Below, piece after piece: positions 14,588-46,290 of a stretch of DNA of 64,000 nt (position 1 is the first letter of the stretch; every line of letters starts with the position of its first letter). The DNA comes from Escherichia coli (GTDB lineage: Bacteria; Pseudomonadota; Gammaproteobacteria; Enterobacterales; Enterobacteriaceae). Position numbers and translations under genes: made by a program. The stretch lies in NCBI RefSeq assembly GCF_029227855.1, contig NZ_CP074356.1, one strand, 5' to 3'. The notes under the pieces were generated by a model that searched no databases, was not told where the DNA came from, and saw only the letters and a list, made by a program, of their open reading frames with translations.

Positions 14588-15184
14588 ATGGTTGGTGTTA
14601 CTCAAAGGTCAGGGAATTACTCACGTAATGTGCAGGTGGTTGTCGATTCTAACTCTGTTGATATTATAAAGTCTCCATCGATTTTTATGGATCTTGTTGG
14701 TATTTTAGTTGATTCGAATGTTATTGATCCTCGTACAAACAATGACTACGAGCCATATGATATTGAGAATAAAATAGACTTCAATGATGTTATAAAACAT
14801 AGAGAACGTATTGAAGGGTTCTATCTATATTCTTCGATGATAGATAAAGCGTATGAAACATTAAATGAAAGTATGCCTACTGCTAAGGAAACGGCACTGA
14901 AAAGCATCAATTCACGATATCTTGATTGTCAAGGAGATTTATTGCTTAAACATAGAGAAGCGTATAAGAGCTGCAAGGATGCTCAGGAACGGAATAATTT
15001 AAAGATTCAATTGGTAAGAGAGTTTGCAGATTGGATAATAGACAGTGTAATAGAGCACATCATTAAGAAATGCTTAAATTCTCTTATGGCAATGAATTAC
15101 ACAAGCGAAGAAATCGAATGCCATGCTTCTTTTATCGTTTATCATGCATTCGTAGAGTGTAAGATTCTGGAAAAACCAATATGA
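14588..15184 (+). CDS. hypothetical protein, 198 aa (candidate effector/partner of SMC-like ATPase)
   Basis: ATG 14588 with SD gagg; AT-rich codon usage; stop overlaps next start (ATGA). Confidence 0.6.
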   Translation: MVGVTQRSGNYSRNVQVVVDSNSVDIIKSPSIFMDLVGILVDSNVIDPRTNNDYEPYDIENKIDFNDVIKHRERIEGFYLYSSMIDKAYETLNESMPTAKETALKSINSRYLDCQGDLLLKHREAYKSCKDAQERNNLKIQLVREFADWIIDSVIEHIIKKCLNSLMAMNYTSEEIECHASFIVYHAFVECKILEKPI

Positions 15185-15417
15185 TTATCTCTGATGTAAC
15201 AAAACCAAGCCAAACCTTGTATTACCTGGGAGCTCGGTTATTAGAATGCATGAGTTCAAATGCTTATTCGTATGTTGATATTATAGACTTGTATAATGAA
15301 TTCAAATCTAAAAATAACAACTCTTCATTCACGCAATATATTTACACTTTAAATTGGCTATATTTATTAGGCCTGGTTGATGCTAACGAAAATGGAGATT
15401 TGATATTATGTTTTTGA
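15181..15417 (+). CDS. hypothetical small protein, 78 aa (candidate middle component)
   Basis: Translationally coupled to both neighbours: 4-nt overlap upstream, 10-nt overlap downstream. Confidence 0.5.
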   Translation: MIISDVTKPSQTLYYLGARLLECMSSNAYSYVDIIDLYNEFKSKNNNSSFTQYIYTLNWLYLLGLVDANENGDLILCF

Positions 15418-17132
15418 AACGGCTAATAGTCAGTTCTTTCAGGCTTGGAGTGATTCGTGATATCGAATTTCACATTGGCGTTAATTTGATTATTGACCGA
15501 AACACCTCCAGCAAAGAGCAAACTGGAAATGGTGTGGGAAAAACTACTGTATTAAGAGCTTTAGATTTTTGTTTTGGAGCAGAACAACTGAATTTTTATA
15601 CCGATCCTGAATTCAAGAAAGAAAATTCGGTTATAAAAAATTATTTGATAGAGAACGAGATTGAGTTTTGTTTAATTCTCACAAAAGATTTGAATAATAA
15701 AACTGCACCAGTAATAAAAATTAAGCGTAAAATTACATCTGAGACTAATAAAACGAAGGTTATAGCCTCAATAAATGAAGAGTCCTATACGAAGGCTAAA
15801 GATTTCAACGAGGCTTTAAAAAGAACATTATATCTTGATTCCGCGATAAAACCGACCATACGAGAGATTATGGGACGTGTTATTCGAAATACGCATGACA
15901 AGATGTCGAACGCATTAAAAACGATAAAAATGGGTTCTAATACACAATATGAAACGTTAAATCTGTTTATGTTTGGGTTCGGTAACTCACAGATTCTGGA
16001 TGAAAAACAGTCAGTGACTAAAGCCTATAAACTGGCGAAATCCGATTATGAAGTAATTACTCGCCATCGCTCAAAGAATGCTTTGGAACAAGCTATTGCA
16101 ATTATAAATAGAGATATTATAGCACAAGAAGAGTTAATTTCTAATTTTCAAGTGGCAGACTCTTATAATGATATGCTTGCTGAGTTAAATGAGTTAAAAA
16201 TTAAAATTAGTGAAGTTTCTATCACACTATCATCTTTGGAGTTTAAGCAAAAATTAAACGATAAGGCTATACTAGATCTGGAAAAAAGTCATGAAAATAT
16301 AAATACACTAGATCTACAGAAGTTGTACTTAGAAGCAACTGATCGGTTAGGTAACTTAAACAAAGAGTTTACTGAGCTACTTTCGTTTCATAATAAAATG
16401 CTTGTAAAAAAAGCTGAGTTTATTAGAAAACAAATGCAGCCAGTGCTGCAAGAAATTTCCAAATATAAAGATGAACTAAATAATTTATTGACTCAAGAAT
16501 CAGAGCTTTTAAAGAGTTTGTCTTCGCATGGGACATTGGCAGACCTGCAAATAATGCAAAAAAAATTAAATTCATTATTTGAAGAAAAAGGTGGGCTTGA
16601 AGCTGGACTACTTCAAATCCAAGAGATGGAGAACAACTTTAATATACTGAAAGCAAAGTTTAATGATGTGTCAGATAGATTAAAATCTAAACTTGACGAT
16701 TTTAACAAACGTCTTGCGCTATTCAATTCCTATTTTTCTTTATATACTAAAAAATTATATCAGGATGAATATATTCTTTCCTATAAAGATTCCTCCGGTT
16801 CTTTCGTTTTTACCATTGAACCTTTAGGAACTTTGCTCACATCAGGTAATCAGGGAGAAGGAAAAAAGAAAGCCCAGGTTGCCTCTTTAGATTTTGCCTA
16901 TTTATCTGTCCAGGAGTCTTTAGAAGCCAGAACACCACGTTTTATAGCTCATGATGGAATTGAGGCAATTCATGTAAATCAAATAAATAAGTTATTCGAG
17001 ATAGCTTCGGGGATTAATGGTCAATATATATTGGCTATTCTTAAAGACAAGTTGGAGAATATTGATCAAGACTTCATCAATAATAGTGTTGTGCTTGAGC
17101 TTGGGGAGGACGATAAGTTTTTTAGGCTTTAA
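15408..17132 (+). CDS. SMC-like ABC-type ATPase with long coiled-coil insert, 574 aa
   Basis: N-terminal RecF/SMC-like head with Walker A TGNGVGKTT (about 15522-15548); roughly 230-aa K/E/L-rich coiled-coil region; C-terminal signature-like SGNQGEG and Walker-B-like RFIAHDG followed by IEAIH. Confidence 0.7.
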   Translation: MFLKRLIVSSFRLGVIRDIEFHIGVNLIIDRNTSSKEQTGNGVGKTTVLRALDFCFGAEQLNFYTDPEFKKENSVIKNYLIENEIEFCLILTKDLNNKTAPVIKIKRKITSETNKTKVIASINEESYTKAKDFNEALKRTLYLDSAIKPTIREIMGRVIRNTHDKMSNALKTIKMGSNTQYETLNLFMFGFGNSQILDEKQSVTKAYKLAKSDYEVITRHRSKNALEQAIAIINRDIIAQEELISNFQVADSYNDMLAELNELKIKISEVSITLSSLEFKQKLNDKAILDLEKSHENINTLDLQKLYLEATDRLGNLNKEFTELLSFHNKMLVKKAEFIRKQMQPVLQEISKYKDELNNLLTQESELLKSLSSHGTLADLQIMQKKLNSLFEEKGGLEAGLLQIQEMENNFNILKAKFNDVSDRLKSKLDDFNKRLALFNSYFSLYTKKLYQDEYILSYKDSSGSFVFTIEPLGTLLTSGNQGEGKKKAQVASLDFAYLSVQESLEARTPRFIAHDGIEAIHVNQINKLFEIASGINGQYILAILKDKLENIDQDFINNSVVLELGEDDKFFRL

Positions 17133-17577
17133 GATTTGTAATTTGATAGATATGTAGATATCATTTTTCTCGCTCAAAACTGACAGTCAGATTTGAGCGA
17201 ATTGCTTATGTAAGTATTTCGCAGAATCATGCCATTTATATTTATTAGAACATACGTACTTTAAATGTGGGAGGCTGTCATGTTGGTTCTTAAATGTTCG
17301 CTGACTATTGCGGTGGTGCGGGTAATTTATTGTTCTGTTATTCTTATGGATCGCCTTTCTGACTGATTTCATATTGGCGAGATAACGGGAGTTAAGTAGA
17401 ATGCCTGCGGGTGCTTGAGGCTATCTGCCTCGGGCATGAACACCAACGGCAGATAGAGAAAAGCCCCAGTTAACATTACGCGTCCTGCAAGACGCTTAAC
17501 ATTAATCTGAGGCCAATTTCATGCTAGACACATGTAGGTTAGCCTCTTACGTGCCGAAAGGCAAGGAGAAGCAGGCT

Positions 17578-17733
17578 ATGAAGCAGCAAAAGGCGATGTT
17601 AATCGCCCTGATCGTCATCTGTTTAACCGTCATAGTGACGGCACTGGTAACGAGGAAAGACCTCTGCGAGGTACGAATCCGAACCGGCCAGACGGAGGTC
17701 GCTGTCTTCACAGCTTACGAACCTGAGGAGTAA
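17578..17733 (+). CDS. hokD: Hok-family type I toxin HokD
   Basis: 51-aa product MKQQKAMLIALIVICLTVIVTALVTRKDLCEVRIRTGQTEVAVFTAYEPEE matches remembered HokD/RelF. Confidence 0.85.
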   Translation: MKQQKAMLIALIVICLTVIVTALVTRKDLCEVRIRTGQTEVAVFTAYEPEE

Positions 17734-17949
17734 GAGACCCGGCGAGGGAGAAATCCCTCGCCACCTCTGATGTGACAGGCATCCTCAACGCACCCGCACT
17801 TAACCCGCTTCGGCGTGTTTTTGTTTTTATTTTCAACGCGTTTGAAGTTCTGGACGGTGCCGGAATAGAATCAAAAATACTTAAGTAGCGCGCAGGGATA
17901 AGAGGGATGTTCCCTTAAAGGGGAGAGCTAATTATCCGGAAGGATTCTG

Positions 17950-18201
17950 ATGATGAACATCGAAGAACTGCGTAAAATTTTTTGTGAAGATGGCCTCTAT
18001 GCTGTGTGCGTTGAAAATGGAAATCTTGTTAGTCATTACCGCATTATGTGTTTGCGAAAGAATGGGGCTGCGTTAATTAATTTTGTGGATGGTCGAGTGA
18101 CAGACGGATTTATCTTGCGCGAAGGTGAGTTTGTCACTTCATTACAGGCACTGAAAGAGATCGGAATAAAAGCAGGCTTTTCAGCTTTTGCAGAAGAATA
18201 A
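17950..18201 (+). CDS. rem: prophage protein Rem
   Basis: 83-aa product MMNIEELRKIFCEDGLYAVCVENGNL... matches remembered Qin Rem. Confidence 0.85.
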   Translation: MMNIEELRKIFCEDGLYAVCVENGNLVSHYRIMCLRKNGAALINFVDGRVTDGFILREGEFVTSLQALKEIGIKAGFSAFAEE

Positions 18202-18267
18202 ACTCATCTACAATCTTGCGCGGGGCTGAACTCCCGCTGAGTAACACCGTGCCACCGGAGAAAACCG

Positions 18268-18546
18268 ATGGCACGCAACGTAAAATATTACAATTCTGAT
18301 AATTCGCCCGTTCTTGCCTGCACGCACGAGCGGTATTCTCACGCATTCAAGTCTGAATGGTTCCAGCACCCTCCATGCACTGAAGAGCAGGCTGAATGGA
18401 TAATTCAGTGTTACCGCAGGCGCGGATACGAGGTTAAGAAAGCCCTTAGTCTCGACTACCGTCACTGGATAATCTCAGTCAGATTGCCTTACTCCGAACG
18501 CCCACCGCGTCCGTCCCGTACATTCCAGCAACGCATCTGGAGGTAA
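18268..18546 (+). CDS. hypothetical nin-region protein
   Basis: 92-aa ORF with SD ggag; stop immediately before ydfU-like start. Confidence 0.5.
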   Translation: MARNVKYYNSDNSPVLACTHERYSHAFKSEWFQHPPCTEEQAEWIIQCYRRRGYEVKKALSLDYRHWIISVRLPYSERPPRPSRTFQQRIWR

Positions 18547-18547
18547 C

Positions 18548-19597
18548 GTGCGGGTATTACTTCGACCTGTTCTGGTACCGGAACTCGGGCTGGTGGTCGT
18601 TAAGCCGGGCCGTGAATCCATGCCGGTATTCCACAATACCCGGGTACTGGTGGAGCCGGAACCGAAAAGCATGCGTAATCTGCCGTCCGGGGTCGTTCCT
18701 GCCGTTCGCCAGCCGCTGGTGGAAGACAAAACATTGCTGCCGTTTTTCAGTAACGCACGGGTGATTCGTGCTGCTGGTGGTGCTGGTGCATTGTCTGACT
18801 GGCTGTTGCGCCATATTAAATCCTGCCAGTGGCCACACGGCGATTATCATCACAGCGAAACCGTCATTCACCGTTATGGTACCGGCGCAATGGTGTTGTG
18901 CTGGCACTGCGACAACCAGCTGCGTGACCAGACATCCGAATCACTCGAGCAAGTTGCTCATCAAAACCTGTCAGCATGGATGATTGACGTCATCGGTCAC
19001 GCAATAAGCGGTACGCAGGAGCGTGAATTATCTCTGGCTGAATTATCCTGGTGGGCGGTCCGCAATCAGGTGGCGGACGCGCTACCGGAAGCGGTATTAC
19101 GTCGTTCGCTGGGGTTGCGTGCGGAAAAAATCCGCTCAATGTACCGCGAAAGCGACATCGTACCGGGAGAGCAGACCGCCACCAGCATATTGAAACAGCG
19201 CACAAAAAATCTTGCACCGTTGCCTCACGCCCACCAGCAACAAAACCCATCACAGGAAAAGACGGTGGTAAGCATCACCGTTGATCCAGAGTCTCCGGAA
19301 TCTTTCATGAAGCTGCCTAAACGTCACCGTTGGGTTAAGGAGAAATACACACGCTGGGTTAAGACACAGCCGTGTGCTTGCTGCGGGATGCCAGCCGACG
19401 ATCCGCATCATCTGATTGGTCACGGGCAGGGCGGAATGGGAACCAAAGCACATGATCTCTTTGTGTTGCCTTTGTGCAGAAAGCATCACGACGAGTTGCA
19501 TACGGATACCGTGGCATTTGAAGAGAAGTATGGCTCCCAACTGGAGCTGATTTTTCGATTTATCGATCGCGCGCTGGCAATTGGTGTGCTGGCCTAA
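18548..19597 (+). CDS. ydfU: YdfU-like DUF968 protein with C-terminal HNH-like Cys/His motifs
   Basis: 349-aa ORF with GTG start and SD ggagg; C-terminal [18 protein letters not shown]...CRKHHDELH; same length and position as remembered Qin YdfU. Confidence 0.8.
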
Positions 19598-19614
19598 TTT
19601 TGTGGAGTAAGTTG

Positions 19615-19992
19615 ATGCGTGATATTCAGATGGTTCTTGAGCGTTGGGGGGCATGGGCGGCTAATAATCATGAAGATGTGACCTGGTCGTCCATTGCCGC
19701 TGGTTTTAAGGGATTAATTCCTTCAAAAGTAAGATCTCGTCCGCAATGCTGTGACGATGACGCGATGATCATTTGTGAATGTATGGCTCGCCTGAGAAAA
19801 AACAACAGCGATTTACATGGTTTATTGGTGGACTATTATGTCGGCGGCATGACTTTTATGGCGCTTGCACGTAAGCATGGGCGATCTGATTGTTGGGTTG
19901 GCAGGATGCTCCAGAAAGCTGAGGGCGTAGTGGAGGGCATGCTGATGGTATTGGATCTCCGATTGGAGATGGATGCTGATTGTTCGAAATAA
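19615..19992 (+). CDS. late-gene antitermination protein Q
   Basis: 125-aa [27 protein letters not shown]... typical of small Q antiterminators; followed by terminator. Confidence 0.85.
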
Positions 19993-20090
19993 TTAAAGGA
20001 AAAGTTGCTGTCTGATTGTCATTAGTCTAACATTTTAAATGTTGGAATCGCAACGTAGTTATTATCATATAACAGCTTGTTTCCTGATTT

Positions 20091-20119
20091 AGCCAGCCTC
20101 CCCAAAGGCTGGTTTTTTT
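20091..20119 (+). terminator. rho-independent terminator downstream of Q (tR'-like)
   Basis: Stem ccagcc / ggctgg with loop, followed by TTTTTTT. Confidence 0.55.
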
Positions 20120-20147
20120 CTAATAAGTATCATTTCGGGTAGGGATT

Positions 20148-20672
20148 TTATTGTTTAACCCATAATAATTCATTGACATTGAATCCCAACTTTTGAGCGG
20201 TTCGCACATAGTCTGCTTTTACTTTATCTGGAATAGTTGGGGTCCTTGCCAGAATCCATAGGTATTCTCTGTTCGAACCACTAACAAGAGCATACTTATA
20301 CTCATCATCCAGTTTGATTACATTATAGCCACCATAGAAGGGGCCAAAAAACGAAACCTTCAACGCTGCAGTTTTAGTATCTCCAGTAAAGTATGCTTTA
20401 CCTTCGCTCTCGCTCCATTTATTTTTCGTTGGATCGTATCCACGGTTAAGTACACGAATCCCTCCGTCGTTCCGTTTTCCATAAGTAGCGCTGACCTGTT
20501 CCAGACCACGTTCGAACCGGTTCTCGAGGCGAGCTATTTCATACCATTTTCCGAGGTAGCGGTTGGCGTCAAAATTTGTAATCGGCTGCACACCTTTAGG
20601 TGGTGTCGGGGCCTTACATGCTATAAGAGTGAAAGAGAGTGCAATGCCAGTCAACACAGGCCATAACTTCAT
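20148..20672 (-). CDS. bacterial lipocalin Blc-like outer-membrane lipoprotein
   Basis: ATG 20672 with SD agga; lipobox LIACK; lipocalin motifs NFDANRYLGKWYEIAR and FFGPFYGGYNVI. Confidence 0.85.
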   Translation of the reverse strand: MKLWPVLTGIALSFTLIACKAPTPPKGVQPITNFDANRYLGKWYEIARLENRFERGLEQVSATYGKRNDGGIRVLNRGYDPTKNKWSESEGKAYFTGDTKTAALKVSFFGPFYGGYNVIKLDDEYKYALVSGSNREYLWILARTPTIPDKVKADYVRTAQKLGFNVNELLWVKQ

Positions 20673-20864
20673 AATCAATCCTGTACTTTTGATAGTTGAG
20701 AGTAAGTATGAAAGATAGATGATTACGACCGATCACTTAAAGAACTTTCATACTATATTAGGAATAGTCCATAACAGAAAAATTGTCAGTGATGACGTCA
20801 GAAAGGCAATTTATTCCGTGCACTACACAGTTTATGTGTTAATGAATTAGTCAAGGGGGAGGAT

Positions 20865-21824
20865 ATGATAAAAAAACCTGTGATTGGAATCAGCGGTTGT
20901 TTGGCCGGTTCTGCTGTTCGTTTTGATGGTGGTCACAAAAGAGCTGACTTTTTAATGGACAAATTAGTGGAATGGGTAACATTCAGACCAGTATGTCCGG
21001 AAATGGCTATAGGGCTGCCAGTTCCGCGTCCTGCTCTACGTCTTGTGCGCTCGAAGCAAGGAAATATACGGATGTGTTTCAGCCACGACCAGAATGAGGA
21101 TGTGACAGAGAGAATGACAGAGTTTAGTCGTTCTTATATGCACAAATTAAAGGATGTATCGGGGTTTGTGGTTTGTGCTAAATCTCCCAGCTGTGGCATG
21201 GAGCGCGTGCGTGTCTATGATGAAAATGGTAATCGAGGTCGTAAAGATGGAGTGGGACTATTTACGAGCACTTTGATGGAAAAGTTTTCCTGGCTACCGG
21301 TTGAAGAGGATGGGCGATTACATGATCCAGTGCTTCGTGAGAATTTTGTTGAAAGAGTTTTTGCTTTGCATGAGCTCAATCACCTTTACAAGGAGAAATT
21401 ATCAAGAAGAGAGTTATTAGCTTTTCATAGTCGTTATAAGCTTCAGTTGTTGGCGCATAGTCAGGCAGGCTATAAAGATATGGGACCATTTGTGGCTGCA
21501 ATACACGAGTGGGCGGACCTTGAATCATACTTTGAGGTGTATCGTGATAAGCTGATGGCGATTCTCAGAAAACCTGCATCACGTAAAAATCACACGAATG
21601 TGCTGATGCATATACAGGGGTATTTTAGTAATTACTTAAGTACACGCCAGCGTAAAGAGTTGACCGAGGTTATACTTAACTATCGCTTTGGCACATTGCC
21701 TCTTCTTGCGCCGTTGACTCTGCTGAAGCATTATCTGGGTGAGTATCCTAATGATTACTTGCTTACACAGAATTACTTCGATCCCTATCCGGAAGAACTG
21801 GCTCTAAGACTGATGGTGAATTAA
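20865..21824 (+). CDS. DUF523 (TudS-like) plus DUF1722 (YbgA-like) fusion protein
   Basis: 319-aa ORF with SD agggggagg; N-terminal Cys-containing GISGCLAG...CPEM...SPSCG; C-terminal half YbgA-like. Confidence 0.75.
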   Translation: MIKKPVIGISGCLAGSAVRFDGGHKRADFLMDKLVEWVTFRPVCPEMAIGLPVPRPALRLVRSKQGNIRMCFSHDQNEDVTERMTEFSRSYMHKLKDVSGFVVCAKSPSCGMERVRVYDENGNRGRKDGVGLFTSTLMEKFSWLPVEEDGRLHDPVLRENFVERVFALHELNHLYKEKLSRRELLAFHSRYKLQLLAHSQAGYKDMGPFVAAIHEWADLESYFEVYRDKLMAILRKPASRKNHTNVLMHIQGYFSNYLSTRQRKELTEVILNYRFGTLPLLAPLTLLKHYLGEYPNDYLLTQNYFDPYPEELALRLMVN

Positions 21825-22230
21825 CTGTATGCGATATCATCTGAAAGTGATGAGTTCCTGTATGCAGGATATTTACAATCGTAAAAACTACACTATGATA
21901 CCCATAGTGTCAGTTTGTATAAAAATCCTGTTCACGCTGAAGAAAACATTGAGATGCAATTTAATGTTGGTAAACATACCAGCCCCAAAAGATTTTATTC
22001 AATCTGTTTTTATATGAAGATATTTCAAGTGAATATTAAGAGTATATAATATTATTATTGCACGCAGCTATTATAATATAACAGATTAGTTTAATGATTT
22101 GTTTTTTGTGAGTTAAACACATGGTTTTATAGTTGTGATGCAATGAGATTTTCCTTATTGTTGAACTGGCGAATATTGATTTTCCACCTATACTTACCTG
22201 GTGTAACCCCAGTGATATCAGGTGGATAAT

Positions 22231-22944
22231 ATGCCATACATATGTTCTGTCATTTTGGTGTTGAACTCGTTTGGTGTCCGAATTGGTAAAGAAGATATTT
22301 TGTTTAAAAAAGGAAGTGCTGTCCTCATCGAATACAATTTAAAAGATCTTTTTTCGTCAAATACAGATCATCTAATGATCGTAGATGTTGAGGAGAAAAC
22401 AGTTAATGATTTCTTTAAAAACTACACACTCTCACCTTTTTCTGTAAGAAGGTTTTATCCGGCATACTTGATAGTAGAATGTGAAGGTTTTTCTTTGTTA
22501 AAGAACTTGGTTGCATGCTTGAATTGTGATAGCAAAACCGTGGATGTGGTTAGAAATCAAATATCACTTGCATGTCTTGCTGTCTTATCTTCAGAGAAAA
22601 TAGTGCAAAGTTTTTTGTTCGGAAGTCTTAATAGCTTAGGTTGTAAAGTTAAGGCTATTATTCACTCGGATATCTCAGCGTCATGGAGACTTTGTGATAT
22701 ATCTTCAAGATTATATATGAGCGAGAGTTTGTTAAAAAGAAAATTAAAAGACGAAGGGGTATCGTTTAGTAGATTAATTCTTGAAGAACGAATGATGATG
22801 GCGCAAAGATTATTAATTTACAGTAACCATACTGTCGGCAAGGTGGCGGGAATATGCGGGTATGACAATGCATCATATTTTGTAAGTGTTTTTAGAAGAT
22901 ATTTTGGTGTGCCTCCGCACCAATATTTATCAAGATTTTCTTAG
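22231..22944 (+). CDS. AraC-family transcriptional regulator (AppY-like)
   Basis: C-terminal AraC HTH (GKVAGICGYDNASYFVSVFRRYFGVPPHQY); N-terminal half resembles remembered AppY; AT-rich. Confidence 0.8.
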   Translation: MPYICSVILVLNSFGVRIGKEDILFKKGSAVLIEYNLKDLFSSNTDHLMIVDVEEKTVNDFFKNYTLSPFSVRRFYPAYLIVECEGFSLLKNLVACLNCDSKTVDVVRNQISLACLAVLSSEKIVQSFLFGSLNSLGCKVKAIIHSDISASWRLCDISSRLYMSESLLKRKLKDEGVSFSRLILEERMMMAQRLLIYSNHTVGKVAGICGYDNASYFVSVFRRYFGVPPHQYLSRFS

Positions 22945-23135
22945 AAGATATGATGTGATGGCATTTTATAAAGTTGTTTTTTTGAAGTGTAAGATTATAC
23001 GATATTTTTAGCTACGCCAGAATAATTGCTGGCGTTTTTCTTTTTGAATAGATGTTCGGGCCTTACGCTAATGTAATTTTTTTCCTTCTTCGAACCAAAC
23101 CGTGTACACCATCCGTTATCTGCGGAGGTGAGGCT

Positions 23136-23351
23136 ATGAAATCCATGGATAAGTTAACAACGGGCATCGCCTACGGCACCTCTGCAGGCAGTGCTGGCTA
23201 CTGGTTTTTACAGTTGCTCGATAAAGTCACGCCCTCACAGTGGGCGGCAATAGGTGTATTGGGTAGTCTGGTATTTGGCATGCTGACGTATCTGACTAAC
23301 CTTTATTTCAAGATTAAAGAAGACAGGCGTAAGGCTGAGAGAGGAGAGTAA
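23136..23351 (+). CDS. class II holin
   Basis: 71-aa product [73 protein letters not shown] ggaggtgagg. Confidence 0.85.
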
Positions 23352-23355
23352 TCCA

Positions 23356-23700
23356 ATGACTCAAGTATACGAACTGGTTGTGAAAGGAGTCCGTAATTTT
23401 GAGAATAAAGTTGCGGTAACTTTAGCCTTACAGGACAAAGAACGCTTTGACGGTGAGATTTTTGACCTTGATATCACTATGGATCGTGTTGAAGGTGCTG
23501 CACTGGAGTTTTATGAGGCAGCAGCCAGAAGGAGAATCAGACAGGTGTTCTTGGATGTTGCTGCCGGGTTATGTGAAGGGGATGAGCAGTCGCCGGAAAA
23601 GCGCCCCATAATTTTAGAGGCGCAGAATGTGTGGATAACCTACAAAGGAAAGCTACCAGGAAGAATTACTGGTTATCTGAAGACTCCGCCGGAATGTTAA
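23356..23700 (+). CDS. YdfR-like lysis-cassette protein (DUF1327)
   Basis: 114-aa ORF MTQVYELVVKGVRNFENKVAVTLALQDKERFDGEIFDLD... resembles remembered YdfR. Confidence 0.7.
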   Translation: MTQVYELVVKGVRNFENKVAVTLALQDKERFDGEIFDLDITMDRVEGAALEFYEAAARRRIRQVFLDVAAGLCEGDEQSPEKRPIILEAQNVWITYKGKLPGRITGYLKTPPEC

Positions 23701-23938
23701 TTTTAACAGCATATTTCTCTTCCAGTAATGCCACCAGCCACTTGAAGGAATTTTGTTGTTCCTGGGACCATTTGGGGCTGTGTGATTCAAGCTGGAGCGA
23801 TGCCAGTGTTGGTTGCATTTGTTCCCTGGGAATTGACAATGCCAGATATGAAAATGCGACAGTAAGGGCATTAACATCATCCCGAAGCCTGGAAATGCAG
23901 TCGAGCAACTCCTGAAGAGAAATGGTGTTATTGTCCAT
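23666..23938 (-). CDS. hypothetical protein encoded antisense within lysis cassette
   Basis: 90-aa minus-strand ORF with good RBS (gagga, 6-nt spacer); acidic, protein-like composition. Confidence 0.45.
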   Translation of the reverse strand: MDNNTISLQELLDCISRLRDDVNALTVAFSYLALSIPREQMQPTLASLQLESHSPKWSQEQQNSFKWLVALLEEKYAVKINIPAESSDNQ

Positions 23939-24043
23939 AAATAATCCTCTTGATTGTATTTACCTGTTCTCCGCCTGATTCAACAGGTTGGGACAGATAA
24001 ACATATCCTGGGTTCAGAAATCGATAAATCCTGATAAATATCC

Positions 24044-24577
24044 ATGAACGTAAAAGTCAAATACGGCCTGTCGGCTGCCGTTCTGGCGCTGATTGGTGCT
24101 GGTGCATCTGCTCCCCAGATACTTGACCAGTTTCTGGACGAAAAAGAAGGTAACCACACAATGGCATACCGTGATGGTTCCGGCATATGGACCATCTGTC
24201 GGGGTGCCACAGTGGTGGATGGAAAACCCGTTTTTCCCAATATGAAACTGTCGAAGGAAAAATGCGACCAGGTTAACGCTATTGAGCGTGATAAGGCTCT
24301 GGCATGGGTGGAGCGCAATATTAAAGTACCACTGACCGAACCACAAAAAGCGGGTATCGCGTCATTTTGTCCCTATAACATTGGCCCCGGTAAGTGTTTT
24401 CCGTCGACGTTTTATAAACGGCTGAATGCTGGTGATCGTAAAGGTGCATGCGAGGCGATTCGCTGGTGGATTAAGGACAGGGGGCGTGATTGCCGCATTC
24501 GTTCAAATAACTGTTACGGTCAGGTTATTCGTCGTGATCAGGAGAGCGCGTTAGTGTGCTGGGGGATCGACAGATAA
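24044..24577 (+). CDS. phage lysozyme (endolysin) with signal-anchor-like N-terminus
   Basis: 177-aa ORF; hydrophobic N-terminal segment (LSAAVLALIGAGASA) consistent with a signal-anchor-release endolysin; lysozyme family assigned by position after the holin and resemblance to remembered prophage lysozymes. Confidence 0.85.
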   Translation: MNVKVKYGLSAAVLALIGAGASAPQILDQFLDEKEGNHTMAYRDGSGIWTICRGATVVDGKPVFPNMKLSKEKCDQVNAIERDKALAWVERNIKVPLTEPQKAGIASFCPYNIGPGKCFPSTFYKRLNAGDRKGACEAIRWWIKDRGRDCRIRSNNCYGQVIRRDQESALVCWGIDR

Positions 24578-24875
24578 GCAGAATATTTCTCTGAAAAATG
24601 ACGTTGGCCAACGCGAGTGGATAACACGATATTCGTCATAAATGAATTGAAGTAGTGAATAAGAGCAGAACCCCCGATTGCGCGAACAGTCGGGTTTTTT
24701 GTGTTTCCTGACTCCGGAAAAGCCAAAGGAGAAAGTGTGTTTGATTTTAGCAAACTGATTCGGGAGATTCGAACTATGGTTGAAAAATTATCCACCTGGA
24801 AATTCATTCTTTTCTGGCTGGTGTTTGCGATTATGGCCTCCGGTTATTTCATTGCTCAGATACGCTGGTGGTGAA

Positions 24876-25340
24876 ATGAAACCGGTTCTGTATGCGGTGA
24901 TTGTTATTCTACTGGTGGTCAGTGGTGCGCTGTTGCTGGCAATAGCCCATTACCGCGATAATGCCATCATCTACAAAGAGCAGAGAGATGATGCGAAGAC
25001 AAAACTCAGCCAGGCGAACGCAGCCATTACTGACATGCAGCAGCGCCAGCGTGATGTTACTGCACTCGATGCAAAATACCTGAAGGAATTAGCTGATGCG
25101 AAAGCTGAAAATGATGCTCTTCGTGATGATATTGCCGCTGGTCGTCGTCGGTTGCACATCAGAGCAGTCTGTCAGAGCGTGCGTGAAGCCACCGCCGCCT
25201 CCGGCGTGGGTAATGCAGCCGCCCCCCGACTGGCAGACACCGCTGAACGGGATTATTTCACCCTCAGAGAGCGACTGATAATAATGCAAAAACAACTTGA
25301 AGGGGCACAGCTATACATTCGAGAGCAATGCCTCAGATAA
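24876..25340 (+). CDS. i-spanin Rz
   Basis: ATG 24876; N-terminal TM ([22 protein letters not shown]) then coiled-coil region. Confidence 0.8.
25096..25278 (+). CDS. o-spanin Rz1 lipoprotein, nested in Rz in the +1 frame
   Basis: 60-aa product [23 protein letters not shown]... with lipobox and proline-rich stretch [15 protein letters not shown]. Confidence 0.75.
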
Positions 25341-25657
25341 AAACCGGCCAAGGATAATCCGCTGAAGATTCGCCGGGGCTAGAGAGAGCCAAAGCTTTAA
25401 TTGACACCATTACTCATAGCAAGGCAATGCATCGTTTTTATGAGGTCAATAGATGCCTGATTTATTTCTGTGCTCCGTATCGTCGCTGTATTCCTTCGTT
25501 AACCATGAGTGTAGTCCGACGGGGAGCACGAGTGTATGGGAATAATAAAAAAAGATACACACCTGGGTTTACCGCTTTTATGCTTCGCGGGTTTGCTCTT
25601 CATGCAGCTAGTCCGGTACAGAGGTGTATGAAACCGGACTGCTGATTTAATTAATTC

Positions 25658-26062
25658 CTATATTAATGGTCTGTTATTTTCAACATCTTCCATGTACAAA
25701 AGATCGTGATCAAACGAATAGTAAAACCTTATGTTTTTATCTATATCTGTAATCCAGCGATAAACACCTGCTTTTGCTAAAGTGAGACGATATTGATGAA
25801 ATGTAGATTTACCTGATATAAGATTTCTGGCTGCTTCTTTAATTAATTCTGGTTTCTTTGATGTGCTAACTTTCACAAGTCCTCTACTGCCTCGAACTAA
25901 TAAAATATTATCATCATGAGTAATTAGTCTTATATTATCAGTAGCCAGATAATAAATATAATGCGCAATATTATGGCGTTTTAATTCGGAGTAAAACCAT
26001 GGGAAGTATAAATTACTTCTAACGTGTTCGAATATCTCTTGAAAAATATCTGCCTGCTCCAT
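25658..26062 (-). CDS. hypothetical AT-rich moron protein
   Basis: 134-aa minus-strand ORF (MEQADIFQEIFEHVRSNLYFPWFYSELKRHNIAHYIYYL...) between spanins and terminase; start uncertain. Confidence 0.45.
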   Translation of the reverse strand: MEQADIFQEIFEHVRSNLYFPWFYSELKRHNIAHYIYYLATDNIRLITHDDNILLVRGSRGLVKVSTSKKPELIKEAARNLISGKSTFHQYRLTLAKAGVYRWITDIDKNIRFYYSFDHDLLYMEDVENNRPLI

Positions 26063-45568: not shown

Positions 45569-46250
45569 GTGCACAGAAAACCCCCAGCTAGGCTGGGGGT
45601 TCCGGAAAGCTTTCAGCTTTGAGCCAGTTATTAAAACCCCTTTTGATTTGTTAAAACACTTTGCGGTCTGGCAACTGCAAGTGTCAAACAAGAAATCAAA
45701 AGGGGGTCCCAATGGGGAACGAAAAGAGCTTAGCGCACACCCGATGGAACTGTAAATATCACATAGTTTTTGCGCCAAAATACCGAAGACAGGTGTTCTA
45801 CAGAGAGAAGCGTAGAGCAATAGGCAGTATTTTGAGAAAGCTGTGTGAGTGGAAAAGCGTACGGATTCTGGAAGCTGAATGCTGTGCAGATCATATCCAT
45901 ATGCTTGTGGAGATCCCGCCCAAAATGAGCGTATCCGGGTTTATGGGATATCTGAAAGGGAAAAGCAGTCTGATGCTTTACGAGCAGTTTGGTGATTTGA
46001 AATTCAAATACAGGAACAGGGAGTTCTGGTGCAGAGGGTACTACGTCGATACAGTGGGTAAGAACACGGCGAAGATACAGGATTACATAAAGCACCAGCT
46101 TGAAGAGGATAAAATGGGAGAGCAGTTATCGATTCCCTATCCGGGCAGCCCGTTTACGGGCCGTAAGTAACGAAGTTGGATGCAAATGTCAGATCGTGTG
46201 CGCCTGTTAGGGCGCGGCTGGTAAGAGAGCCTTATAGGCGCATTTGAAAA
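45569..46250 (+). mobile_element. IS200-type insertion sequence (IS200/IS605 family)
   Basis: Y1 (HUH) transposase gene flanked by short noncoding ends; perfect palindrome cccccagctaggctggggg at 45581-45599 near the left end; boundaries approximate. Confidence 0.7.
45712..46170 (+). CDS. tnpA: IS200-type transposase TnpA
   Basis: 152-aa product MGNEKSLAHTRWNCKYHIVFAPKYRRQVFY... with HUH-like HMLVEIPP and catalytic Tyr region. Confidence 0.85.
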   Translation: MGNEKSLAHTRWNCKYHIVFAPKYRRQVFYREKRRAIGSILRKLCEWKSVRILEAECCADHIHMLVEIPPKMSVSGFMGYLKGKSSLMLYEQFGDLKFKYRNREFWCRGYYVDTVGKNTAKIQDYIKHQLEEDKMGEQLSIPYPGSPFTGRK

Positions 46251-46290
46251 ACCTCCGGCTATGCCGGAGGATATTTATTGTGGAGTGGAT

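Follow-up and report, generated by a model that had tools for sequence, protein, structure and literature searches.

RudS, the fusion of a TudS domain with DUF1722, is a [4Fe-4S] enzyme that converts 4-thiouridine (s4U) in transfer RNA (tRNA) to uridine (Jamontas et al., 2024, PMC11417400), and one of the six enzymes assayed, RudS_vir, is gp66 of Escherichia phage 1H12 (NC_049947; PMC11417400). A lipocalin gene, blc, has already been reported as a moron of infant-gut lambda phages, present in more than 50% of the isolates (Mathieu et al., 2020, PMC6969025), and the AraC-type regulators PatE, PsrB and AppY are all prophage-borne and all activators of AR2/hdeAB acid-resistance genes. The slot between the Q antiterminator gene and the holin gene holds stx in Stx phages, nmpC in DLP12 (on the minus strand) and csp genes in Qin-type prophages. 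Here we describe a 64,000-nucleotide stretch of the Escherichia coli contig NZ_CP074356.1 (hereafter the window) in which positions 20148-22944, within this slot of a lambdoid prophage, hold three intact open reading frames (ORFs) for a Blc-subfamily lipocalin, a RudS and an AraC/XylS regulator, with a Q21-family antiterminator upstream and a holin downstream. We favour, at a probability of about 0.6, the reading that the three genes form a lysogenic-conversion cassette, common in the Q-to-holin slot of lambdoid E. coli prophages and acting by the mechanism proposed below. The parts of the cassette are largely known already: both the blc moron and a phage RudS have been published, hundreds of genomes carry annotated identical copies, and the regulator falls into a well-known group. 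Added here are the probable derivation of lipocalin and RudS, as a pair, from a chromosomal locus with loss of the MlrA-like regulator, the tie of the cassette to a single Q allele, a second, independent capture of RudS and the presence of RudS in about one-fifth of E. coli; a literature search for lipocalin, RudS and AraC gene as one unit found no description.

The middle gene (20865-21824, plus strand, 319 residues) is, judged by its sequence, a RudS of the tRNA 4-thiouridine desulfidase family, predicted to remove s4U at position 8 of tRNA. Its product carries a 2-thiour_desulf/DUF523 domain (PF04463, residues 7-149, E 1e-39) followed by DUF1722 (PF08349, residues 192-309, E 9e-40). The initial annotation had recognized this fusion and taken it for a possible thiouracil desulfurase; both domains are there, but the function has to be renamed, as the protein is 92% identical to RudS_vir across all 319 residues. 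RudS_vir has the same two domains, the same length, the same cluster cysteines and the same place between a lipocalin and an AraC gene, and the window protein is a separate allele with 8% amino-acid divergence. The cluster cysteines C12, C44 and C110 align with C10, C43 and C104 of TudS in PDB 6Z92, and those of RudS_vir stand at the same positions, C12, C44 and C110 (PMC11417400). E46, R55, S107 and S109 match the catalytic residues E51, R60, S111 and S113 of RudS_KT by offset from the cluster cysteines, a correspondence of offsets only and not of a direct alignment to RudS_KT.

The biochemistry of the family is described in the same study. When overexpressed in E. coli, all RudS proteins tested lowered tRNA s4U 4.7- to 26-fold, RudS_KT shortened the ultraviolet-A (UVA) growth delay caused by s4U8-C13 cross-linking, and no RudS protein rescued a uracil auxotroph on thiouracil, unlike the free-base TudS (PMC11417400). 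The study also notes that rudS is often found in operons that respond to light and contain photolyase or carotenoid genes and LitR/MerR regulators (PMC11417400). The study treated E. coli as lacking RudS and used BL21(DE3) as test host; it describes neither the cassette nor the prevalence of RudS in E. coli, and the accessible portion of its supplement text mentions neither the lipocalin nor 1H12 (PMC11417400). Domain fusion goes further in one database protein of 500 residues (P0005), in which DUF3833 is joined to both RudS domains.

The cassette is common and not rare cargo. Among 5,426 complete E. coli genomes, 1,152, or roughly a fifth, have a match to the 2.9-kb island, and in 888 of them the match spans at least 80% of the query; the annotations of these genomes call the three products 'lipocalin family protein', 'YbgA family protein' and 'helix-turn-helix domain-containing protein'. 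A prophage RudS in about 20% of the complete E. coli genomes is at odds with the published view of this species (PMC11417400), and natural lysogens thereby become a native system in which the role of s4U erasure in a gut bacterium or its phage can be studied. The cassette also occurs in inducible temperate phages that infant-gut E. coli release (the Lambda_ev/1H12 series) and in phage IdasGreatGrand. Phage 1H12 has the gene order of the window, namely Q, minus-strand lipocalin, RudS, a 243-residue protein and holin, with identities to the window of 95% for Q, 97% for the lipocalin, 92% for RudS and 76% for the AraC protein; the 'blc' moron of the infant-gut phages (PMC6969025) is the same gene as the window lipocalin, the 97% being the value in 1H12.

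The same genomes tie the cassette closely to the neighbouring antiterminator. About 1,289 genomes have the window Q allele with at least 90% identity; the match runs into the lipocalin in 1,075 of them, while for the 84%-identical QuuD allele homology is always lost at 19974, inside Q. The spacing from Q through lipocalin to RudS is invariant in 36 E. coli-type contigs from IMG/VR, whose holins are 60-100% identical. This very tight linkage to one Q allele, together with the invariant spacing, is what would be expected if the cassette were neutral baggage locked to a successful Q/PR'/tR' module and spread by phage recombination, and the decay of some copies points the same way: insertion sequence (IS) elements split rudS in some strains, among them those of the E. 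coli B lineage such as BL21 (where the records contain the cassette with rudS IS-interrupted or truncated), and frameshifted AraC copies occur. We regard such neutrality as improbable. Between the window and 1H12, the ratio of nonsynonymous to synonymous substitutions (dN/dS) is 0.07-0.21 over synonymous divergences (dS) of 0.2-0.6, which indicates sustained purifying selection on all three proteins (0.13 for rudS, against 0.09 for Q between the same two alleles); RudS was captured independently by another phage lineage, and it is an active enzyme, as seen with RudS_vir (PMC11417400). All three cassette proteins align end to end with their own family profiles, and these alignments together with dN/dS values of 0.07, 0.13 and 0.21 show that the genes are not pseudogenes, a concern that had accompanied the first description of the island.

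Selection is strongest on the lipocalin (20148-20672, minus strand, 174 residues), the best conserved gene of the cassette with a dN/dS of 0.07. It matches the NCBIfam model NF007786 'outer membrane lipoprotein Blc' with 312.4 bits (cutoff 267) over profile positions 1-174 of 176, and its mature length aligns fully to the solved Blc structures (PDB 1QWD, 2ACO and 3MBT; E 5e-68 for 3MBT). The start is probably the ATG, as in identical RefSeq copies, and not the TTG at 20678. The lipobox reads L16-I17-A18-C19 and is followed by K20, not Asp; under the Lol-pathway rule, Lys instead of Asp after the lipobox cysteine directs sorting to the outer membrane. The subfamily assignment of the initial annotation, a Blc-like lipoprotein on the minus strand, therefore stands with the 312-bit match, but the protein is not a copy of E. 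coli blc. Despite the full-length alignment, identity to K-12 Blc is only 59%, against 79-80% to the RudS-adjacent lipocalins of Enterobacter, Serratia and Citrobacter sedlakii, to whose lineage the protein belongs, and the gene is not beside ampC; neither identity nor genomic context fits orthology to the ampC-linked, sigma-S-dependent blc.

An outer-membrane lipoprotein on the strand opposite the late genes recalls bor, and membrane proteins dominate the morons of lambda (PMC6969025), so that the lipocalin could be imagined as the selected gene of the cassette, a surface factor of the Bor/Lom/Cor type serving superinfection exclusion or host survival, with RudS as a mere passenger. The strong conservation of the lipocalin would suit this explanation. 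We give it little credence, since a PADLOC scan of the three cassette proteins returned no defence family, and since homologues with 79-80% identity lie beside RudS at non-phage loci, which means that a cellular function of this lipocalin is older than the phage. Blc, moreover, is published as facing the periplasm. The idea that the cassette as a whole is an anti-phage system was dropped on the same PADLOC result.

The lipocalin and RudS genes diverge from an intergenic region of 192 bp (20673-20864; 34% GC content). The late promoter cannot express a minus-strand lipocalin, across which late read-through would run antisense, and with this divergent layout the region must hold the lipocalin promoter and any promoter of rudS; a strong Shine-Dalgarno sequence, AAGGGGGAGG, stands ahead of rudS. 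In an alignment of four sequences the region is nearly identical in 1H12 and IdasGreatGrand, whereas a shared operator sought in the same alignment against the C. sedlakii intergenic DNA gave no evident similarity.

The same pairing of genes exists in bacterial chromosomes. Searching one genome per bacterial species for RudS returned 41 enterobacterial chromosomal loci with proteins 66-76% identical to the window RudS, and 22 of the 41 have an upstream lipocalin gene on the opposite strand, whose product is 68-81% identical to the phage lipocalin. The two genes of C. sedlakii, like those of the phage, are directly divergent, with about 190 bp between them. A 241-residue MerR-type regulator with MlrA domains, often along with a transthyretin-like hydroxyisourate hydrolase (HiuH), separates the two genes in Enterobacter, Leclercia, Lelliottia, Phytobacter, Raoultella terrigena and Serratia rubidaea. 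Against the divergent loci of Enterobacter, Leclercia, Lelliottia, Serratia and C. sedlakii (lipocalin 79-81%, RudS 70-75% identical), the phage copy has gained the AraC gene and has neither an MlrA-like regulator nor a transthyretin-like gene. No homologue of the MlrA-like MerR-type regulator was found in the window, and none of the 41 chromosomal loci has an AraC homologue beside RudS, which indicates that the AraC-type regulator joined the pair in the phage. On the simplest reading, the lipocalin-RudS pair was taken up by a phage as a unit and the MlrA-like regulator left behind. Because the two genes travel as a chromosome-derived pair, a joint function is suggested, probably against near-ultraviolet (near-UV) or photo-oxidative damage, and this would be a first clue to the role of this lipocalin lineage.

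RudS has also entered phages without the lipocalin. In six contigs from IMG/VR (L086-L091), which belong to a different lambdoid phage group, a RudS with 73% identity lies alone in the early nin region (at 4001-4960 in L090), between replication genes and rusA/DUF968/Q, with cold-shock genes past Q. With this second phage group, temperate phages have acquired RudS at least twice. In Klebsiella pneumoniae (contigs L095-L097, 106-6960), rudS closes an apparent lipid-modification operon of nine genes encoding, in order, a SnoaL-like protein, an SDR protein, a flavin adenine dinucleotide (FAD) amine oxidase, DUF1365, a methyltransferase resembling cyclopropane-fatty-acid (CFA) synthase, DUF2878, a 174-residue protein, DUF3833 and RudS. 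This operon resembles singlet-oxygen and furan-fatty-acid clusters. An analogous operon of the singlet-oxygen type in Stenotrophomonas, controlled by a ChrR-regulated sigma factor, ends in a lipocalin gene that is up 165-fold on deletion of ChrR (PMC11832516). The unannotated 174-residue protein of the Klebsiella operon was rejected as a counterpart of the lipocalin, to which it has no similarity.

These associations lead to a more specific idea, which we hold only tentatively and with clearly less confidence than the cassette reading itself: lipocalin and RudS would form a mobile anti-photodamage module that combines s4U erasure with a lipocalin for damaged membrane lipids, and of which temperate enterobacterial phages captured RudS at least twice and uncoupled it from the MlrA-like repressor, so that a prophage confers near-UV tolerance on about one-fifth of E. 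coli. If true, the module would shorten UVA growth arrest in lysogens, protect late phage translation after sunlight induction, or both.

The third gene (22231-22944, plus strand; 34% GC) encodes a regulator of 237 residues, counted from the ATG, in the GadW/AppY/YdeO/PatE clade of the AraC/XylS family. The initial annotation called it AppY-like and AT-rich; family and base composition are as described, while 'AppY-like' is loose. In alignments from residue 1 to about 235 the protein is 34% identical to GadW, 31% to AppY and 30% to YdeO, and its identity to ECs_0287 of the Sakai prophage Sp1 is 48% over 237 residues. ECs_0287 is probably PatE, to judge from its position in the OI-8/CP-933H equivalent. 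Among curated hidden Markov models (NCBIfam) the best match is YdeO with 115.5 bits (cutoff 348), and GadX reaches 89.7 (cutoff 500); every equivalog cutoff is missed, so the regulator is not an orthologue of any curated regulator. It nevertheless has the size of PatE, AppY, GadW and YdeO, shares with the GadW/AppY/YdeO group the N-terminal motif M-x-x-x-C-S-V-I-L...SF, and ends like them in a double helix-turn-helix, which many NCBIfam AraC models match at about residues 133-238. PatE, PsrA/PsrB of enterohaemorrhagic E. coli (EHEC) and AppY of DLP12 are likewise prophage-borne and AT-rich, whereas GadW and YdeO are chromosomal. Since PatE, PsrB and AppY activate AR2/hdeAB, a similar host-directed role is the best guess by analogy, and the regulator may activate gadE and hdeAB. 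It would then add an uncharacterized member to the regulators by which prophages rewire the acid resistance of pathogenic E. coli.

The genomic position of the window regulator differs from that of these relatives, as it occupies the Q-to-holin slot, whereas appY and the PatE-type genes of mEp332 and Sp1 lie after tail-fibre genes. The PatE-type genes of mEp332 (L048, 3492-4651) and Sakai Sp1 (L051, 24101-25239) are themselves 99% identical; both stand past the tail-fibre assembly genes and are followed by the same IS3-family transposase remnant, which suggests that the PatE-type regulator moves as a unit with the IS3-family fragment.

The regulator gene also has a history of its own within the cassette. 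Its dN/dS between the window and 1H12 is 0.21 and its dS 0.61, against dS values of 0.2-0.3 for its neighbours, and this twofold synonymous divergence indicates a separate history. Across the sampled viral contigs its alleles are about 97, 86 and 76% identical. A leader or intergenic region with 31% GC (21825-22230, plus strand) precedes the gene, and its small ORFs are not conserved; an ORF of 62 residues at 21829-22017 was rejected as a gene, since indels break it in other alleles. The region contains a candidate promoter, TTTACA-16-TATGAT (21872-21899, plus strand, the element extending to 21910), which matches 10 of 12 consensus positions, begins 48 bp past the rudS stop codon and overlaps a hairpin (free energy, dG, -11.2 kcal/mol; z -3.4). 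Both hexamers are unchanged in three diverged alleles, while the surrounding intergenic DNA has indels. Downstream of the gene, before the holin, lies an intrinsic terminator (hairpin 23014-23035, tail to 23046, plus strand; dG -11.3 kcal/mol, z -3.2), in which the hairpin is followed by UUUUUCUUUUU. With the conserved promoter-like element and this terminator the AraC gene looks autonomous, and the terminator would keep transcripts of the cassette in the lysogen from reaching the lysis genes.

On the left, the cassette is bordered by Q (19615-19992, plus strand, 125 residues; PHROG 79, 169 bits; PDB 6P18, Q21, E 5e-10), a distant relative of Q21 and 95% identical to 1H12 gp64. A tR'-like intrinsic terminator lies about 100 bp past Q (hairpin 20091-20114, tail to 20121, plus strand; dG -14.9 kcal/mol, z -4.7) and consists of a 9-bp stem and a U-run; it is specific to the plus strand, the minus strand continuing with CUAAAUC and no U-run. 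The late promoter PR' is placed only tentatively, at 19964-20040 (plus strand), on the strength of lambdoid architecture. Candidates are TGGAGA-18-AATAAT at 19964-19993 (9 of 12 in the consensus scan) and TTGCTG-17-TAACAT at 20005-20033 (8 of 12, read by eye). On the right, the slot ends at the first lysis gene, an EssD/EssQ-type holin (23137-23351, plus strand; DLP12 homology returns at 23116), after which come a YdfR-family protein, a lysozyme and a spanin-like lysis protein. The proposal that a three-gene island lies between Q with its terminator and the holin is thus confirmed in every element (the ORFs, Q, the 20091-20114 terminator and the holin at 23137).

The arrangement of these signals bears on who benefits from the cassette. 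It had been suggested that the island is late-operon cargo expressed on induction. Position and strand fit this for rudS and the AraC gene, which follow Q and its terminator directly on the late-operon strand, but not for the lipocalin on the minus strand. One could accordingly suppose that the plus-strand genes serve the phage, a late-operon RudS remodelling the tRNA pool during lytic growth and the AraC protein tuning metabolism for the burst; translation might be kept up when sunlight or UV has induced the prophage and at the same time cross-linked tRNA that contains s4U, or a stringent-response shutdown might be avoided. The link to a specific Q allele, the independent acquisition of RudS by another phage group and the effects of s4U loss on tRNA stability and UVA response would all agree with such a role. 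Even so, we consider it unlikely, if somewhat less so than neutrality or a surface factor. Already cross-linked tRNA is, as far as known, no RudS substrate, a late gene would act mere minutes ahead of lysis, and the opposite-strand lipocalin partner must be expressed in the lysogen. The terminator before the holin and the promoter-like element before the AraC gene indicate expression of the lysogen type, and the second phage group has its RudS in the early (nin) region, not in the late operon. Bracketing of the plus-strand genes by terminators likewise suggests that their expression is not solely induction-dependent. We rank host benefit first because of these features of an autonomous unit, the opposite-strand lipocalin and the early-region RudS of the second phage group.

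Under the favoured reading of a lysogenic-conversion cassette, a phage would have captured the lipocalin-RudS pair without its regulator, and the AraC gene with its promoter-like element and terminator would have been gained later. In the lysogen, the 192-bp divergent region would drive the lipocalin and probably RudS, the AraC gene would have a promoter of its own, and the terminator before the holin would shield the lysis genes. RudS would lower tRNA s4U and hence reduce near-UV cross-linking of tRNA and growth arrest, a near-UV trait that is absent from the E. coli core genome; the lipocalin would reside in the outer membrane and handle damaged lipids or lyso-lipids; and the AraC protein would, most likely, activate host acid-resistance genes such as gadE and hdeAB. 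Upon induction, Q-modified RNA polymerase would pass the 20091-20114 terminator, run antisense across the lipocalin gene, co-transcribe rudS and the AraC gene and continue past 23014-23035 into the lysis genes.

Several observations weigh against this reading. The activity of RudS_vir was seen on overexpression and is weaker than its protein level predicts, below that of other RudS proteins present in comparable amounts, and the UVA phenotype belongs to RudS_KT and not to the phage enzyme (PMC11417400). The light or photo-oxidative role of the chromosomal locus is an argument by association, based on gene neighbourhood and on the discussion in the RudS paper. The best chromosomal RudS is only 76% identical and so points to no particular donor. 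The regulator is only 48% identical to the probable PatE and falls under all equivalog cutoffs, and its regulon is a guess. Promoter-like matches in the region number 12, no enrichment over the 10.6 expected in shuffled sequences. Finally, the AraC gene is damaged in about 6 of 28 sampled viral contigs, by frameshift in four, truncation in one and displacement by an IS66-type element in one (contigs L058, L062, L066, L069, L079 and L055), while lipocalin and RudS are intact in these contigs; the regulator is the mosaic and most dispensable part of the cassette.

Comparison with other prophages places the cassette in a variable slot. Homology to DLP12 ends inside Q at 19974 and picks up again at 23116, with nmpC in between. 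In the slot of phiSTEC1575-Stx2k (L049, 4001-6324), an AraC homologue with 39% identity directly precedes three tRNAs and stx2k, and an IraM-like anti-adaptor gene follows the toxin genes, which bears out the earlier statement that this is the stx position of Stx phages. The flanks match 4,648 genomes and the island 1,152, so that most flank-sharing genomes are without the cassette. Compared with stx and nmpC, the cargo of the window is neither toxin nor porin, and one of its genes lies on the opposite strand. Inserted in a variable slot, with its own terminator, a deviant base composition (31-44% GC, against 48% for the prophage) and a promoter that is only a candidate, the cassette has the look of a moron. 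A tRNA scan of the window found none, unlike the case in Stx phages, and an Rfam scan of 17000-26000 gave no match in the island, its only results being sok upstream and a sub-threshold look-alike on the terminator. The general understanding of lambdoid cargo slots is unchanged by these findings, and their practical value is modest but concrete.

The host element is a complete-looking lambdoid prophage at the Qin site, flanked by rspB and ydfJ. Positions 1-43400 of the window are 99.7% identical to E. coli strain 2D, from whose annotation the prophage gene content was read: integrase, excisionase, exonuclease, repressor/Cro, replication, Q, lysis, terminase, head and tail genes. Other accessory loci are visible along the prophage. 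A low-GC (31-34%) block of three genes at 14588-17132 in the early region is labelled in strain 2D as an 'ABC-three component system' with a DUF2326 protein; a protein of 574 residues encoded at 15408-17132 has a match (E 1e-41) to PDC-M68B, a candidate defence family of PADLOC, and the block is probably an anti-phage defence moron. Positions 17409-17733 hold a type I toxin-antitoxin locus of the hok/sok kind, with a HokD-like ORF and a 115-bit Rfam match to sok; rem and a YdfU-like DUF968 gene come after it, as in K-12 Qin. Further downstream, between the lom-like and tail-fibre genes, about 700 bp (45571-46274) are absent from the otherwise 99-100% identical prophage of strain 2D.

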